Of a stretch of DNA of 64,000 nucleotides, positions 54,876 to 63,522 are shown one piece after another. Source of the stretch: Rhizodiscina lignyota (Eukaryota); the NCBI GenBank assembly GCA_010015805.1, contig ML978127.1, positions 434,001-498,000 of the forward strand, read 5' to 3'. The first letter of the stretch is position 1, and every line of letters starts with the position of its first letter. The position numbers and the translations under genes are program-made. The notes beneath the pieces are model-generated. The model worked only from the letters and a program-made list of their open reading frames with translations. It did no database searches and had not been told where the DNA came from.

Positions 54876-57355
54876 TTAATCTGACATCCTCCAAGTGCTG
54901 AACCACTTCAGGTACTTGTACTGCTGGTTCGAGCCCGTCATACCGAAGCAGATGGGGCTGAACAGGATGTAAAGCCCAATCACTATGGCATAGAGGACGG
55001 AGTAGAGTCCCCAAGTGACAGTTGCATTTAGCTTCCTCGTGGAGAAGTCCAAGCAGAAAGCAGCAGTGAGGATCGCGAAGTAGAGCGCCGGATAGTAGTG
55101 ATGGACGTACGTTACACGGGCCATGGCAATGAAGGGATAGTAGTGAAGGAGCCAGCCAATCACTGGGTAGATACCGGCGTAATGGAATTGGTCGATCTCG
55201 TGCTGCTTGAGGTCGGCGAAGCCTCGCTGCCAGCGGACAAGGTACCATGCCACCATGAGAACGATGACACCGAGGGACGCTGTAGAGCCCCAATACACTA
55301 TTGGGTTCCCAAGGAGGAAGTATTTTACGACTTTCAATCTGTTAGCAGAGGAACTCGCAAGCAGTTTTGTTGAATTACTACTTACTGTTGTCATCCCAAC
55401 TGCACATACGGAGACCGACGTGCAGGATTGGCCACTGCCAGAAGTGGGAAGCCAGATCGTCCTGCTTGTCCGGATCTGGAACGAGGGCATTGTTGGAAGT
55501 CATCATAGCGACGTTCAGGTGAATGAAATCACGCAAGAAAGGTGACTTGTACGAGCCTGGATCACCAGCCGGGACTAAATGTAAATCGTTAGCTTGATAT
55601 ATTCTTCAAAAGCGACCTTTTTTTTATGACAATACGTACGCTTCTCGTTCCAGTGGCTCTCGACGTTCCAGTGAGTGAACACATCTCGCGGTTTATTCTC
55701 TTTGGCACAACTGACTTCGATCTGCTTGAAGCCCCATTGTGGTAGGTTCACATTTCCAGCGCGCAAGTAGCAGCCGAGATCCACATGCTTGAGACGGAAG
55801 GCCGAAGTCAAAGTTCGCAGCTTGGAATAATCTCTGGATGCCGCGTCATTGACAACCTCGATTACCCAATGGTCCTTAGTATCGCCAATAGTGGTGTTGC
55901 CGTAGCAAGAGACTTCGTTATCACCCTTAGTTACAGGGGCAGCAATCTGGTGAGAATGCAAGTTGCGTCCAGTCTGAGCGTGGATGAGACGGATAACATC
56001 ACCGTTGCCAACAAATTGAGGCTCGGCAGCTGGATCGTAGTCAGGTTGCTGGCGGTTAGGATAAAAGAACCAATCATTGTTGGCATCCTTGTGATGATAG
56101 CAAGTGATCTGTTGCTGCTGCGAACCTTCTGGATACGTTTGGACGTGAGAATGAAGGAGACCACCACCATACCCCATATTCTTGATCGTCGCGCGGGATC
56201 CTAGAGCGATTTCCAACGGACTGTCTTTGCCGACCTCAGTTCCGCGCAAGTTGGCCTGGAATAAGGAGCTCATCTGTGCATCTCCAGGACCGCTGTTCTC
56301 CAGTACCAGGAAGTGGATATAGAAGGAGAACATGTAGACCATTGTTGGGATCATGATGAGACCAAAGACACGGAATCCTAGATGTGCGGCCAATTCAACC
56401 TTTGGCATCTTGATATCCCCAAACTTGTTCCAGAGATCCTCAGCAGTGTAGAGACCAACGAGAGCCGTGCAGAACAGTCCGACCCATTTAACGCTGCAAA
56501 CGCATCCGATTGATACGCCAGTCAGCATTAACCAGAGGCCCCACTCAGGCGAGAACGGATCGTGCTGCAGCTTGTGGAACTTGGCCCAGCAGAGCATAGT
56601 GGTGAATGTAAAAAACAACAGCATCGAGTCAAGGAGAATGAACCGGCTAATGGTTGTGTAGGAGTTCTCACAGAGGACCGCAAGAGTCACAAGCCACACT
56701 GTTTGTCTCCTGAAGTTCATTTCTTTCGCGGTCCAGTAAGCCAGCGGAACGCACAGCGCACCAAAAGCCGCGTTGAAAACCCGCATAAAGGTATAGTTCA
56801 GCTCGTCCGGGTAGGTTTCGCCAGACTTGAATTCAAACGAGCCATTGTATCCTGCCAGGTATCCCGAGAGTCCAACGAGCATCTTGCCGAGCGGAGGGTG
56901 CACATCGAAATAGAATTCACGCTTCAGGTAGTGCGAACCGAACTTGCCAAAGCTGCAGAGAGAATACGCATTAGTTCGGGATTCAAAGAGGCTTAATGGA
57001 CGAGGGTAACTTACTGAGCTTCGTCCCATGTAACGATGGGAGAAAGACCAATCTTCCACATGCGAGTAAAGAAGGCTAGGAAGGTAAATATTAACGGCGC
57101 AATGATCCATTCGTACTCGTCCAGTATATCAAGCACGGTCTGGGGCTTCTGTACTACCTCGTTAGCCTTCTATTTCCTGGAGTCGCAAATATCTTCCAGC
57201 AAGTCTGAGGCACCACTTCCTACCTTTGTCTTCGGTTTGTCTTCGCCCTCCTGATTGACTCCATTGATATTGACGTCCTGCCGTCCAGGCACATTTCTTT
57301 TCCGCAGTTCATCGCTCTGGTGGTCGGCGCCTGACGCAAATGTTTGTTGCGCCAT
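54876..57355 (-). CDS. PMT2: Dolichyl-phosphate-mannose:protein O-mannosyltransferase, PMT2 subfamily (introns 57149-57223, 56953-57014, 55575-55639, 55331-55385)
   Basis: [14 protein letters not shown] after splicing; [34 protein letters not shown] domains; [14 protein letters not shown]. Confidence 0.93.
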
Positions 57356-58099
57356 GATTGCGGTGCAATCGGTATGTCGAAATGGATTAGATGTGAAGGT
57401 ATAGGTTCTTCGACGCGACGGCTTTCGTTATAGACTTCGCAAAATTGGCCAGTACTTAAGGTGTGTAGTTCGTCAAGTATCGGAACAATCCAAGGTGCTC
57501 CCAGGAGGCTCTGCTCAAAAAGATTCGTGAGAAGGCTCAAAGAGATGATATTAGACTTCCTCAAGGGGACATCTGAAGGGAAGAGGCGAAGCACTCTTGC
57601 TTCGGCAGGTAGTAAGAGGGATGAAAGAGGGTGCGAAGGGAGTCGAAAACGCTCTTGCGAATTGTGAATCCAGCTGTCCTCAAAGATTCGCGAGGACAGG
57701 GCTGGCGCCGCGCGCGCAAGGGGAATCGATACGCGCTAAGCCCTTTGGGGAATTTATTGCCTTTTTTAGAACGTCGCGCAGGCGTGTTAACGTGTCAGGA
57801 GGCAAATCACATGTCGAGCTCGAACAAGTAAGATACATATATGGTATTTCCAGAAGAGGAGCCATTGCCCGCATTTATGCTATATTATTCGCGCTCGTCC
57901 AAGTAGAGCGTGCCCAGAGGCAACAAGCGCGAACCAATCCAGCGGTCTGCTGGTCTCTATCCCTAAAAGCGCCCAAGTAGAAGAACAAGTGGTCGAGAAA
58001 AAAATTGCCCATTGAAGAAGCAAACCGTCCCTGCCCACGGCCGTGTCATAATAAAGGTCGGGGTTGATGCATTGCAAAAGTGTACAATCAAGTGTTGCT

Positions 58100-60555
58100 T
58101 CAGTCCTCGTCGTCCTGCTCTAACCGCCTGTACTTCCCGCTCCCACTTGCAGCGTCGCTTGAATCACCCTTCCCTCTCTTGACCATATTGCTGATCCAAC
58201 CCCCAAGACCTTCGCTTCGATCTCCACTGGCCTGCCTGGTGTATTTCGGCCGTCCCTCTTCGATCTCGACATGCGGTGGATCTATGTCCAGACCCGGGAT
58301 GGCAGCGTCAGCCGCATGAGTCTGTCCTGCGTGAAGATCGAGACTTGTCGGCGAACGGTTGCCGCTGAAAAGAGATTCAACCTCAGCCTGGGTTTGCGGT
58401 GTTGGTGCCACAGACGTTGCGTCACCAAATATGGAATTCATGTCTTCCAGCCGAACATTCGCTGTTTCAGGATAGATGAACCAAACTGAAAGTTATTAGC
58501 GGGAATCGTAGCAGTGCAATCCAACACTCAATACTCACCGACAACAAAACTGACAGCGCAGAAGAACGCATGAAGGAGGTAGAGGCGCCACTGGATGACT
58601 TCCTGGAGGATAGGCGTCAATTCACCTACGAGCCAGTTAAATGCCCAGTTCGACGCGGTACTCAGACTTGCACCTTTGGCTCGAATACTGAGTGGAAGGA
58701 TTTCTGGAGGATAGAGCCATGGTATAGGTCCCCACGATGCACCGAAGGCGGCGTTGTAAATCATGACAAAAATGACAACGAGTGTAGGCGTGAGTCGAAT
58801 CTCGATGTAGACGAAATATGATATGGCGGAGAGGGATATGATCATAGCAACAGCTCCGGAAAGTAGGATGACACGTCGCCCCCATAGATCGACGAGATAC
58901 CAAGGCGGAACCGTGGAGAGAAGATATGTGATGCCATTAATGCCGGTCATGAGGATGGCATCTCGACCCACCCATCCAGCCTGCTCGAACACGAGCGGGG
59001 CATAGTAAGAGATGACATTGATACCGTTCAACTGCGCAAGGGCTTGTGCAGACATGGCGATGAAAACGCGCTTATAGTAGCGTCTGAACATGTCTACATA
59101 TGAGCGCTCTCCCTCTTGCCTCTGGAGGAGAACATTCATCTTGATCTCTCGGTACTCGTCGCGGGCTTTCGGGTTGTGGATGTCGCCTTTGCCATAGAGA
59201 TTAGCAATGACTACAATGCCTTCCTCATCGTGGTCATTGTCAAGGAGCCATCTGAGCAAAGTTAGCGAAAACTTTCGAGAAAAGCTGCCTAACCTACCTT
59301 GGCGATTCACAGATGAGCAGACTGCCCAAGGCCAAAAACGAACCCATGACACATTGCATAAGTAAGGGGACTCTCCACGCCCAGTCACCGTGGATGTAAC
59401 TGCAGAAATAGTCGACCCACACGCTTGCGGCGTATCCAGAGATATTGCCTGTGAATTCGATACATGCCAACTTGCCGCGGTTATGAGGAGGTGAAATTTC
59501 GGATTGGTAGACGGGAACGATAGTCGACAAAGCACCCACTCCCAAACCAGCTATTATACGACCAAGCATCATCATCGGCATTCCGTTAGCGAATGTCTGA
59601 AGTGCTCCACCGACGACAAAGATCATTGATCCGTAAAGGATTGTTTTCCGTCGACCAATTAGATCTCCGATTCTTCCGACGAGCAATGAGGCGATTAAGG
59701 CACCGATTTCGAGAATGGCTACCATTGTACCGATTTCGGCTCGTGAAGGTTGGTTGAAGTAGTCTTTGAAGTACGAACCCCTACACACGTCTGGTAAGCT
59801 TTGCGCTGGAATAATGCCACTGAAAGATCTTACGTTATGATGCCCGACATCACGCCCTGATCATACCCAAATAGAAAGACGCCTAATGATACAAACACGC
59901 TGGTAAAATAACTATGCGTTTTATTAGTTATGGCATCCATATCATCTGTGGTGCTTGACCTACAGCAACTTCTTCCCATGCAGGCCGTGCATACGATTCG
60001 GTCCATCTCGAGGAGCCATTATGAACGCAAGTATCCTCTCGACGCGAGGGATGTGTCTTGGCGGGGGATTTGGGATAGGAATGTCCTCTTTCCTCTTGGG
60101 AACTCCAGGTTGACTCTCTTTCTCGTCTCTGAGATCCTCAGGCCTATATCTGACCTTCTTGGCCTGCTTGTTCCGGCCTTTGGGCTGTCTGGGCCTGAGA
60201 GGATGAGCTGCCTCGTCAAGAGATGGCCGGAGCCTGATACTCAGAGGGTCTTCGGCGTCAGCAAGCTGGTCGACTAAATCTCCAGTCTCTGACCAGATGC
60301 TGAAATCGTCCGAGTCCCGGGAGTCTCTATCAGAGCCGCTCTCAAACCTACGGCACGGCAGCAAATTAGCACATCTGGACCAGATCCATGACAGAGGAGG
60401 AGGACGTACGAAGAGCGACGGGCGTGCCGCTTTTCGCTTGGAGACTCTATCAGCGAGGCACTATCGGAGTCGTTTTGTCTGCCTGAGCTCAGCGAGTGTA
60501 GGGGGATATTGGCGGAGATGCGCGAGGAATTCGGTTTCGAGGGTTGTTGAATAAT
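58100..60555 (-). CDS. Sugar porter family MFS transporter, multi-exon; first in-frame AUG at 60019, proposed non-AUG start near 60555
   Basis: FLFGYDQGVMSG, GDLIGRR, VPVYQSEISP, ESPR, AQLNGINVISYYAP, WGPIPWLYPPEI and YPET. The upstream frame stays open across intron 60348-60409. Confidence 0.85.
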
Positions 60556-63522
60556 GATTGCGGTCTGAGGCTGCTGAGAAGAGGCAGCCTCGACTCTATT
60601 GAAGCGCGTGGCCGGTCTTTGTGGAGGATGGGGTAAGGTGAGGTCCTCGTGCCAGCCAGCAGAGTTCAGGTGCCAGGAAAGCGGAAAGGGAGGGTCCTGC
60701 GCCAGGTGACGTGCCTCCGGCTGCCGGGATTCGACGATAGCGTGTAAAGATTTGAGCGTCGAGCTATGTAATCGTGCATGCGGAGTGGATCTTTGTTGAG
60801 GAGCTTTCTTGTGAGCGAAGTCTGCAGATTGCGATCGATTTTGCCGTGTGTTCAGGAATAGCGGGTGTTGTTTGGCAGTCCGAAGGGGGCGCTCTCTCTA
60901 CATAAAAACGCGCCCAGGCCTGACGGGTAGGGGGCTCTCACGCCCTGGCTGACAGCCCATATGAGCCAAGACGAGATCAGCATATGGCTGTGCACTCCTT
61001 TAAGGCTATGGCCACCTCCACGTTGTCTTCATACTCTAGCTACTGCAATCTTTTCTATGTGTGCGCGAGGATACAGGTGACGCTTATGTGGCCTTTGTCC
61101 GTCGTGCTGATCATAGAATACGTCTCGATTCTTCATCGTCCGCGCGAAAAATCACAATCTTCCAACTCGGGACGACCCACTTAATTTTCATTTCCTTCTT
61201 TGAGCGCATGAACGGGTCCCAGATAACGAAACAGTTTAACAGTTCACCGCCCTTCCACAAAAGCGAAGGTGCGATATGTATGAGCAGAAAATATCGCTAT
61301 ACGATTAGTCGGTCACCACCATCAGATCAGTTAAGAAAGATGCTATAACCTGAAACGCCCAGTAAACAGCAAGCGGTTTGATGATACTCAATCTGTTGGC
61401 CATATTGATATTTATGGTTGTTTCTACCTCGGGGGCTCTGCCGTCCATGAGCATCCTCCTCGTTGAGAAGGCAGACCGATCCTGGCGACTAATAGGATCT
61501 CCTGTGCTCGCCCACCTTCACGGAACTTTCAAGTTTTTACAACTTCCAAGGTTAGGACAGCAGAGCGAATAAAGCCCGCACCGCATCCAGAATGACCTCC
61601 AGGAACTTGTGAATCTTTCTGATCTTATCCGGAGCCTCGACTCAAAAACAGTCTTACTACCGCGTCATGAAAGGCCACGAGGATTTCGAGTTCAGCTTAT
61701 GCTGCTTCATTGTTGTTTCTTAAGGCTGCCTGCATACCTTCCAGGTCGCACATAAACTTCACCATTGTACTCTAATGTCAGATGAGCATTCAATTTATCA
61801 TGTGTTCTCCTATAAAGCGTCCAGTTCTGAGTCATTCGACTTGGACACGGGGCTTTAGAGCGTAAACCGCAAACTACTCTAAAGGGAAAGCCACTTCCCG
61901 CCGATTTCTCTAAAGCCTCGAATGTAAGTGGTAGATTTATCATTGGATGCGGCCATCGACTGCTGCAGACTCAGGCCTGACCAGATTTTCACCTCAGACA
62001 GGAGAGCGGAGAAGGACGATCATCATAGATGGATTCACGGCGAACATTTCCACGTCAAGAGGGAGCTCGAAGAGCACTCCGAATACGACATCCGTTAGTG
62101 AGCTTCGCTTCCAGATCAGACGGGAAAGACATCGCTTCGTGCGTTAAGAACGGATTGCTTCGATAAGGGCGTCGTCTTACCAGAATGGATCTGCTCTGCG
62201 ACATGGGACGTAAACTATCCGTACAATACACTTTCGCTCTCAGGAGGCAGCTATCATAAACAGCCTACCAAAATTACACACTGCTCACTTGTTAGGAGAT
62301 CCTGGGATAGGCTCAACGAGAAATTAACTCAGTGGCCGTCTTTACGTTTCCTGGCTCCGAGGTCATCCGCTACAAGTCAGCTCAATCTTCCAGCGTTAGT
62401 CACCTACCTGTCGAACGATTCAAAGAACGCTCCGAATCAATCTTTCCACTCACCTCTGACAATGGCGAAGTTCGATGTACTGTATATCAACGTGATGAAA
62501 ACTCGTTCAGGTACAGAAGAGAAGCCTTGCTACCAACTATCGATGCTCTTACACACGCCTTCAACCAACCAAGGACGAGGGAATGTAAACCAAAGACAGC
62601 TTTGGTTGGACATCACTCGAGTGCCAAAAGGAGTCATCGCCAATCTGACTCAACACTCAGACACCTGTTCCGCCAAGTCCTCAATCATCCAATCCTGAAT
62701 CAATGAGTTTACGTTCGCAGGGTCTGTGACGAACGGTGGAGCATGCAAGTATCAATCGTCTGGCTTGCCTCTACCAGTGAGCATGGATGCTCCGGGTTAT
62801 GCCAACATGTGCTTTTGCACATAATATGCAAGTCAAGAGAAAGCAGCATGCGCTATGTATATTGAACTCCACTGCATGTTCTGCGTATCGCGTAAGTAAC
62901 ACTCTCGTGGCTGAGAACAACTGGTCACCATCAGTAGTCATACGTACATAAAACCACTGCACATCGTGATCCTATGTTTCGACTTCAATGCGCGACAGAT
63001 GGGCTACCGCCAACCCTAAGTAATACAGGGCGCTTATTGTTGCGTCGCTCGAAATTTGCACGACAATATCTCGTTCCGACATATGCTTTTGTACGTGTCG
63101 CAGCGCAAATGGACGCTTCCGCGCGAATCAAGTCTGTTGCTCAACACCAGTTTGACAAGCAGTTGTGGAACGGCACAGCGGCTCCCAGCCCCCCTCCACA
63201 CTTACCTCCAGCACAAGTCGAGCACACGAAGTTGCCCATCGAATCAAGTGCCGGACACTAGTTTAAGCAGTGCGGGACTGTCGACATTTCGCTCGACTCA
63301 GCCAAATGAAATCGTGAACCATATGTGAGTGGGTCAATCTGTTTAATATTTCCCCATCTCAGCCAGCCACCCTAACGGCCGCTCCTGAGAATCAAGTTGA
63401 ACTATTCTACAGATACGAGTCCAGCTCCTCCCAGTTTTCCCTAATCCCTAAAGGTCCCCAACACCATTTGCATGCAATGCTGTTGAAACGTAGAAATGCC
63501 AAGAGAGAAAGGGAGGGCTGGA

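Follow-up and report, generated by a model that had tools for sequence, protein, structure and literature searches.

Organization of the sugar porter locus

The window analysed here is a stretch of 64,000 nucleotides (nt) from the fungus Rhizodiscina lignyota (assembly GCA_010015805.1, contig ML978127.1, positions 434,001 to 498,000 of the forward strand). Its minus strand carries a sugar porter gene with an in-frame, AUG-free extension at the 5' side, whose translation is predicted to start at an AUU codon preceded by a compact RNA element (Table 1). The first in-frame ATG of the gene lies at 60019. Upstream of it the frame is open to a TAG at 60900 once 62 nt (60409-60348) are removed as an intron, and the spliced leader from 60776 to 60020 has no ATG, as stated in a first-pass annotation made from the letters of the window, which proposed non-AUG initiation. 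The TAG is directly preceded by an in-frame ATG at 60903, forming an ATG-TAG pair (60903-60898, -351 from the ATT). The closest upstream ATG (60779) is out of frame and opens a 37-codon open reading frame (ORF) ending at 60666. The predicted product has 728 amino acids (aa) if counted from ATT 60552 and 571 aa from AUG 60019.

The porter core scores above the curated cut-offs of PF00083 (348 bits versus 22.3) and TIGR00879 (313.9 versus 237.8, whole domain). It has the full set of 12 helices, with the Asp in helix 1 and the Q-x-x-G-x-N motif of helix 7, and its matches bear names that vary from 'high affinity glucose transporter' to 'STL1'. Four introns of 46-53 nt each are found 3' of the extension, which is single-copy in the genome. 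The contig of a near-identical run matches the window letter for letter over 59800-61300, which counts only against an assembly slip.

Table 1. Elements of the sugar porter gene and its leader, in order of translation.
Feature	Position	Strand	Remarks
Upstream ORF, 37 codons	60666..60779	-	Out of frame; weak context; no conservation; possibly 5' of the main transcription start
Candidate pseudoknot stem S1, 5' arm, AGAG (GGAG in most relatives)	60594..60597	-	Complementary to S2 loop; covariation not significant
Stem S2, 5' arm, GAGGCUGC	60584..60591	-	Stem comparison, covariation
S2 loop	60575..60583	-	Opens with the S1 3' arm, CUCU (60583-60580)
Stem S2, 3' arm, GCAGCCUC	60567..60574	-	Contains the CAG taken as splice acceptor by the public gene model
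Unpaired 14-nt spacer	60553..60566	-	Initiation context C-4, A-3
Possible minor starts, in-frame AUC and AUU	60558 (AUC), 60555 (AUU)	-	Within the spacer
Predicted long-form AUU start	60550..60552	-	728 aa
Coding exon 1 of the extension	60410..60552	-	ANIPLH 60513-60496; acidic dileucine-like DSASLI 60465-60448
Lineage-specific intron, 62 nt	60348..60409	-	From homology
Exon 2	59964..60347	-	SIWSETGDLVDQLADAEDPL 60301-60242; KEDIPIP 60091-60071; helix RVERILAFI 60046-60020; then AUG
Conserved downstream AUG, predicted short-form start	60017..60019	-	A-3, G+4; 571 aa
Sugar porter core (Sugar_tr, TIGR00879)	58100..60019	-	Stop 58102-58100
Core introns	59963-59912, 59833-59781, 59297-59252, 58538-58486	-	

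The extension is a conserved protein sequence

The exon 2 part of the extension matched 127 proteins at E<=0.001 (422 candidates), mostly from Dothideomycetes. Profile and follow-up searches showed that the extension reaches Sordariomycetes, Leotiomycetes and other classes (257/8000; 190; 670/3790). For comparison at the DNA level, 80 of 98 loci confirmed in a metagenome scan were obtained and 18 were left out. The search anchor was present in 75 of the 80, which together with the window gave 47 clusters at 90% identity. Three of the five loci without the anchor are short at the 5' side, and the other two (L036 and L048) were checked separately and fit. L035 and L080 lack a full extension, so that 45 full extensions were analysed. 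Named Sordariomycetes were compared as proteins.

Judged from these alignments, the extension is a real, conserved coding sequence. It is free of stops and keeps the frame in 73 of 76 loci, pN is below pS in 990 of 990 pairs of full extensions, and dN/dS has a median of 0.18 and a maximum of 0.61 in the 38 unsaturated pairs (dS<1). A dN/dS below 1 was one check proposed by the first-pass annotation, and the stops or frameshifts in relatives that it listed as contrary evidence were not encountered in the 73 loci. It had also proposed to look for conservation of the ATT, the frame and the intron; the first two are conserved (the ATT in 45 of 47 clusters), whereas the intron is lineage-specific.

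The last point follows from the two conserved motifs that the intron 60409-60348 has to join: reading is continuous there without an intron in 72 of 75 other loci, the remaining three being truncated or carrying a 1-nt indel. The intron is canonical (GTACGT...GCTAAT...TAG). We infer it for R. lignyota, together with an unspliced leader, from homology. Two out-of-frame ATGs (60389 and 60374) are found inside it. Its retention would close the AUU frame after 92 codons and place upstream AUGs before the short form, a possible off-switch.

Predicted initiation at an AUU codon

For each cluster, the start of the extension was taken to be a near-cognate codon in frame, located 4-20 codons upstream of NIPLH and having a purine at -3, with preference for ATT. 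The codon chosen is ATT in 45 clusters, ATA in one and GTG in one, while the same rule applied to control windows succeeds in 0, 3, 2 and 0 of 46-47. Control Ile codons behave differently: that of NIPLH is ATT in 6 of 47 clusters and the others of the extension in 50 of 302 cases. C is found at -4, a silent position that was not used in picking, in 45/47 clusters, A at -3 in 47/47, C at +4 in 41/47 and C at +5 in 44/47. Moving 5' from the ATT in frame, a stop is met first in 45 clusters, an ATG in none and the contig end in two. The median distance to that stop is 27 codons, and four clusters have it within 7 (5-7 codons).

The edge of protein conservation coincides with this codon. In the proteins inspected, conservation begins abruptly at an I-P preceded by K, T, N or I, 8-18 residues before NIPL(H/R). 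One of these four residues, all encoded by codons that start with A, precedes the Ile in 232 of 255 proteins (the protein sets used for the counts on the extension and its start residue are redundant). A near-cognate codon conserved as nucleotides and placed in an initiation context is found where conservation starts. The non-AUG reading of the first-pass annotation is strongly supported by this comparison of sequences, in which the frequencies of ATT and C-4, the low dN/dS and the stop that comes first in 45 of 45 clusters all agree. Initiation of the long form at AUU is predicted with high confidence.

The run ACC GCA ATC ATT ATT CAA at 60564-60547, with A at -3 of both ATT codons, is present in the window as annotated. 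Initiation at the first of them (60555), favoured in that annotation, does add 158 codons, but the homologous start is most likely one codon further 3', at ATT 60552 (157 added codons). In the alignment the second ATT of the window corresponds to that of relatives with ATT-ATT-C, and the start is also placed there by an RNA model from which the window had been left out (E 0.008, a rough value).

A clade of four loci (L018, L020, L024 and L040) has ATA or possibly GTG instead of ATT and the weakest structure upstream. Start codon and RNA element may have decayed together in this group.

Splicing of the leader

In public databases the start is assigned differently. The identical match to exon 2 of the extension is a 768 aa model listed under Rhizodiscina lignyota that agrees with the window from the Ile onward. 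This public model, P0004, splices an upstream exon with ATG 61136 onto the gene through an intron from 61034 to about 60572, for which a GTATGA donor and a CAG acceptor exist, and would make a non-AUG start unnecessary. We consider this extremely improbable. The acceptor is the CAG within the RNA stem and the 92 nt around it have no branch-site match. The intron would measure about 460 nt, compared to 46-62 nt for the five others of the gene. The number of annotated residues preceding the Ile ranges from 11 to 428 across 183 proteins, with no common sequence in those inspected, and no YAG is present in the last 30 nt before the start in 5 of 47 clusters.

Spliced contigs of relatives also retain the leader. 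L041 and L056 lack four GT-AG introns that are present in their genomic twins, yet run colinear with these twins for 212 and 189 nt of the leader, respectively. L021, L023 and L063 are likewise colinear with their twins, and in the five contigs the leader extends 121-490 nt 5' of the ATT, with ATGs that are out of frame or closed by a stop. Two situations that the first-pass annotation had named as fatal to non-AUG initiation, an unseen upstream exon with an in-frame ATG and a transcription start downstream of 60347, are therefore not those of the relatives. A conserved 3' splice site as the function of the stem was rejected on the same grounds, the retained leader and the five clusters without YAG.

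Several porter gene models are fused to unrelated upstream domains (PF00443, PF03641, PF08610, PF12271; models P0019, P0080, P0124, P0109-P0122, P0131, P0153 and P0054), most likely because the gene finder needed an AUG. The extension corrects a gene family with conflicting N-termini, in which gene finders appear to borrow unrelated AUGs or to leave out the tail, the N. crassa reference protein being an example of the latter.

The downstream AUG and the short form

Out-of-frame ATGs are nearly absent from the extensions. Only three occur in 19,344 nt, whereas 107 are expected from shuffling of codon order (lowest 86 of 500) and 75 from synonymous resampling (lowest 54 of 300). ATG density is 0.16 per kb in the extension versus 7.2 per kb in the core, and an internal Met is found in 1 of 45 clusters and in none of 299 protein segments. 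The AUG that ends this region is conserved: 432 of 435 proteins have a Met right ahead of the GLxG motif, and the codon of this Met has a purine at -3 in 41/45 and G at +4 in 39/45 clusters. The scarcity of ATGs combined with the conserved downstream AUG indicates that the short form also matters, as leaky scanning to a second start that is needed would be expected to select against ATGs in between (PMC7049704 and PMC3542737 give background on leaky scanning). The two isoforms envisaged in the first-pass annotation gain indirect support from this depletion, and on the sequence evidence both forms are probably made.

The short form could also be produced from a second transcription start located inside the extension, the long form still starting at AUU. 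An internal transcription start would likewise select against ATGs in part of the extension, and contigs cannot show start sites. However, the depletion spans the entire extension, ATGs are sparse between -110 and the AUU as well, and AUU starts are leaky as a rule (PMC3542737), all of which makes this alternative unlikely. Further upstream the density is 19 ATGs per kb between -700 and -260 and then falls to 7, 1 and 0 approaching the AUU, which hints at cap sites around -110 to -150.

A conserved peptide encoded by an upstream ORF (uORF) was considered and rejected, the peptides opened by the nearest ATG being different between lineages. AUG-stop elements, mostly AUG-UGA within ATGTGAC, were observed at -119 to -229 in 14 of 38 clusters versus 3 of 24 in a control stretch (L004, L007, L013, L025, L026, L039, L041-L043, L049, L054, L068 and others). 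They could be minimal uORFs or a DNA motif.

An RNA structure precedes the AUU

Most loci have the order GGAG, 1-8 nt, GGGCUG, CUCC, 2-5 nt, CAGCCC immediately 5' of the ATT. This order fits an H-type pseudoknot composed of stems S1 (GGAG/CUCC) and S2 (GGGCUG/CAGCCC). The counterpart in the window, at 60597-60567, has S1 AGAG/CUCU and an S2 of 8 bp (6-8 bp overall); it was missed in the first-pass annotation, which described the leader without a structured RNA element. A pseudoknot score of at least 22 was reached in 40 of 47 clusters versus 2/44 upstream, 5/47 downstream and 13/141 shuffled controls. The spacer between element and start codon measures 11-15 nt in 35 of these 40, with phases distributed 12/15/13 over the three frames.

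S2 is supported by compensatory change. In all 47 rows it is 84% paired, a value attained by 1 of 500 shuffles, and its covariation by 7 of 500 (the shuffle tests on this and the following set ignore the kinship of the rows). In the 39 better-aligned rows pairing rises to 90.6%, compared with 26-51% in slid-alignment controls, four of the six pairs have double changes and the covariation was reached in 0 of 500 shuffles. Variants that keep the pairs are found on separate branches of the tree (L009, L047, L061, L059 and L081), and the held-out loci L036 and L048 add a swap from U-A to A-U. When RIBOSUM scoring is used, RNAalifold recovers a stem of 7 bp from each of the two alignments. The folding energy of the stem in the window is -19 kcal/mol (z -2.5), and structure upstream of the start has a median z of -1.24 versus -0.13 downstream (+11 to +60). 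S1 is complementary to the S2 loop in 31 of 37 clusters bearing S2, versus 3 and 0 of 37 in controls.

Several results weigh against a conserved pseudoknot. Its score is an ad hoc measure of our own, and the 39-row set omits the window and seven divergent clusters. With all 47 rows the double-change pairs are weak, being reached by 43 of 500 shuffles; default RNAalifold gives no consensus structure on either alignment; 10 of 47 clusters lack a strict S2; and S2 pair probability is at least 0.5 in only 26 of 39 rows. For S1, covariation is not significant (1454 of 5000 permutations) and the stem is absent or weak in L036, L081, L035 and L040. On balance, the conserved S2 stem and its spacing to the AUU are shown by the comparative sequence analysis, while the pairing of S1 that would complete the pseudoknot is somewhat better than an even bet.

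The inverted repeat might instead act as DNA, bound by a dimeric transcription factor close to where transcription starts, considering that its commonest form is a conserved GGCTG-N7-8-CAGCC and that a CRE-like (cyclic AMP response element) hexamer is nearby in many loci. Pairing was nevertheless kept by double changes in separate lineages (L009, L047, L061, L059, L036/L048 and L081), the element is found inside spliced contigs, and G-U outnumbers A-C by 11 to 3 among the stem pairs, which favours an RNA on the sense strand. A DNA site is thus very improbable. GTGACGT, which we take to be the CRE-like motif, is shared 5' of the stem by 17 of 47 clusters, more than any other 7-mer (at about -67 to -96; near 60712 in the window), and occurs inside some spliced contigs.

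Beyond the clusters, the Sordariomycete gene models that read through the leader have, in the right place, peptides such as translation of the element would give in 37 of 56 cases, versus 1 of 56 further up, an indirect indication. Neurospora is among them, and the element appears to be present there as judged from translation. Within the 64-kb window only this site is below E 0.1 with the RNA model. A narrow consensus pattern of the element had no match in its own genome, which says little about other copies since the pattern misses the variant of the window itself. Rfam 15 returned five matches at E 0.8-7, all far below gathering and none at the strand and place of the element.

In three loci a plain hairpin of other sequence replaces the element (L081:2322-2391, L032:564-633 and L038:2259-2328). 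In L081 this hairpin stops 17 nt short of the ATT; that of L038 is about as far away, and that of L032 lies farther 5'. A frameshift or readthrough pseudoknot was rejected: the spacer falls in all three frames and in-frame stops are found 5-7 codons before the ATT in four clusters.

Proposed mechanism

It is likely, on the basis of the comparison, that one mRNA yields two forms of a porter conserved in Pezizomycotina, through an AUU with an upstream structure and a downstream AUG. Scanning 43S complexes would unwind the compact stem or H-type pseudoknot. A fraction of the ribosomes would start at AUU 60552, in near-optimal context, to produce the 728 aa form, and the others would scan about 470 AUG-free nt to AUG 60019 and produce the 571 aa form. 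With the AUU in the P site, the element, which ends 11-15 nt upstream, could refold just outside the exit channel of the 40S subunit. The refolded structure would serve as a back-stop or docking element and in this way raise or tune the use of the AUU.

That the structure promotes AUU use is a possibility we place slightly below even. Stable leader structures usually inhibit scanning, and the stem or pseudoknot may be a general brake, dependent on helicases or stress, or a switch operated by a protein or metabolite, which would lower both forms rather than favour the AUU. Such general inhibition, the stability of the window stem (-19 kcal/mol, z -2.5) and the plain hairpins of other sequence in L081, L032 and L038 fit a brake. 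A brake need not lie at any set distance from the AUU, whereas the spacer keeps to 11-15 nt in 35 of 40 clusters. A role as a brake is accordingly rated as a minority possibility; the back-stop or docking role is favoured over it, and readings as a viral-type reinitiation element or as a DNA site come far behind.

In its most specific version, the proposal is that a Pezizomycotina H-type pseudoknot of about 30 nt is an exit-side enhancer or switch that holds the ribosome on the downstream AUU. This version is tentative and rather unlikely to be correct in full. If true, it would represent a new kind of cis-acting enhancer of non-AUG initiation in a cellular mRNA, its fold might be sensitive to a protein, an ion or a sugar metabolite, and it may thereby switch between a short plasma-membrane porter and a long form that is differently sorted or has a signalling role. 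More generally, the element may set the ratio of the long to the short transporter, and provides a natural system for asking whether a structured RNA behind the ribosome can control which start codon is used. Its size of about 30 nt, its apparent presence in Neurospora and its natural compensatory variants make reporter and cell-free tests direct.

The N-terminal tail

The long form would carry a cytosolic N-terminal tail of 157 residues, mostly disordered and with short conserved motifs. An AlphaFold prediction from 115 sequences gives a predicted local distance difference test score (pLDDT) below 50 for most of the tail and of 71-80 for its last 30 residues, which include KEDIPIP and the helix ending at the second Met. 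These 30 residues may pack on the transporter in the model. The tail matches no Pfam family.

Dileucine motifs sort porters to the lysosome or vacuole, and GLUT8 is a porter sorted by an N-terminal dileucine. As in porters of the GLUT8 type, an acidic dileucine-like motif is found in the tail, DSASLI in the window, but here it is patchy and confined to the non-AUG form. It occurs in 56 of 268 segments, where 4.8 are expected. The full acidic motif was found in only 20 of 45 clusters and in 1 of 119 segments on the Sordariomycete side, a distribution that counts against such a sorting role; most Sordariomycete-side proteins (97/119) keep LL but lack the acidic residue. It is conceivable, though doubtful, that the tail redirects the long form to the vacuole or endosome through this signal, and differential targeting is taken only as a hypothesis. 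If the two forms sort differently, start-codon stringency would be linked to where a fungal sugar porter works.

Relation to known systems

Wei, Zhang, Ivanov and Sachs (2013, J Biol Chem 288:9549) are said to have described conserved near-cognate N-terminal extensions in Neurospora crassa genes, reportedly including the glucose transporter NCU01813. The N. crassa orthologue of the porter, XP_956491.3 'high affinity glucose transporter', is annotated from the downstream AUG (565 aa). It has the same K-I-P start pattern and motifs as the long form, with 62% identity over 755 columns. XP_956491 is probably NCU01813, going by the matching name. Given this shared name and the reported list of 2013, the extension is probably already known in Neurospora. 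The first-pass annotation had pointed to a possible Neurospora precedent of this kind, and the orthologue fits it. NCU01813 is named 'high affinity glucose transporter' and has 16-39 reads per kilobase per million (RPKM) on three sugars in PMC4015282, and PMC10608142 lists the accession only.

The transcription factor gene cpc-1 of Pezizomycotina (PMC5487733) resembles the porter in that its extension has no AUG and is conserved over deep divergences, as are the well-placed near-cognate codons in it, AUU among them; annotations leave its start unresolved. It differs from the porter in its product, in having several near-cognate codons and in its two uORFs. The terms 'secondary structure', 'stem-loop' and 'transporter' do not occur in the main text of PMC5487733. 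In START/Kozak-type initiation (PMC11165317) an RNA structure at a set distance is also proposed to promote a non-AUG start; there it lies downstream, at +23 to +26 for CUG, whereas the porter element is upstream. Known helper structures for non-AUG starts, as far as these sources describe them, lie ahead of the codon and the porter element lies behind it. A START-like hairpin about 15-25 nt 3' of the codon was not found in the clusters, where median z at +11 to +60 is -0.13.

In viral reinitiation elements the distance from the end of the structure to the start codon is 12-23 nt, with a lower limit that is ascribed to the ribosome footprint in PMC11921876. The termination upstream ribosome-binding sites (TURBS) treated in the same source resemble the porter element in being compact and ending about 12 nt or more before the start, outside the exit channel. 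The element agrees with this range (about 12-23 nt), ending 11-15 nt before the AUU in 35 of 40 clusters. It differs in having no adjacent stop of a long upstream ORF, in belonging to a cellular mRNA, in acting on a near-cognate codon and in its length of about 30 nt. The hepatitis C virus (HCV)-type internal ribosome entry site (IRES) pseudoknot is another compact structure found before a start codon.

A cellular counterpart of a viral reinitiation structure, or a minimal IRES, could accordingly tether the 40S subunit, for instance after an AUG-stop, for use of the AUU. The spacing shared with viral elements and the AUG-stops at -119 to -229 (14 of 38 clusters versus 3 of 24 in the control) are in line with this view. 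It is nonetheless quite unlikely, as no ORF regularly runs through the element or terminates next to the AUU, and as the strong scanning-type context and the ATG depletion fit cap-dependent scanning. The UGGGA motif complementary to 18S rRNA is present in 1 of 47 clusters, and identity with TURBS was rejected for this reason.

The element was not found in the main text of two fungal RNA screens (PMC5640933 and PMC8216456), where 'transporter' occurs 0 times and whose supplements could list the motif. Nor was a description of it found in the literature searched, which takes in few subscription papers.

Neighbouring gene and annotation

A protein O-mannosyltransferase gene (Pfam PMT and MIR domains) is located on the same strand at 55575-57128, with an upstream exon near 57170-57427, and starts about 700 bases past the porter stop. 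The flanks of the related loci showed no O-mannosyltransferase motif. A scan of the window for bacterial promoters and terminators, which is not applicable to fungal DNA, gave nothing. Many orthologues of the porter are named 'Ribulose bisphosphate carboxylase large chain' at NCBI although they are sugar porters (P0035, P0043, P0062, P0125, P0131, P0139, P0314, P0331 and others), apparently a propagated naming error.

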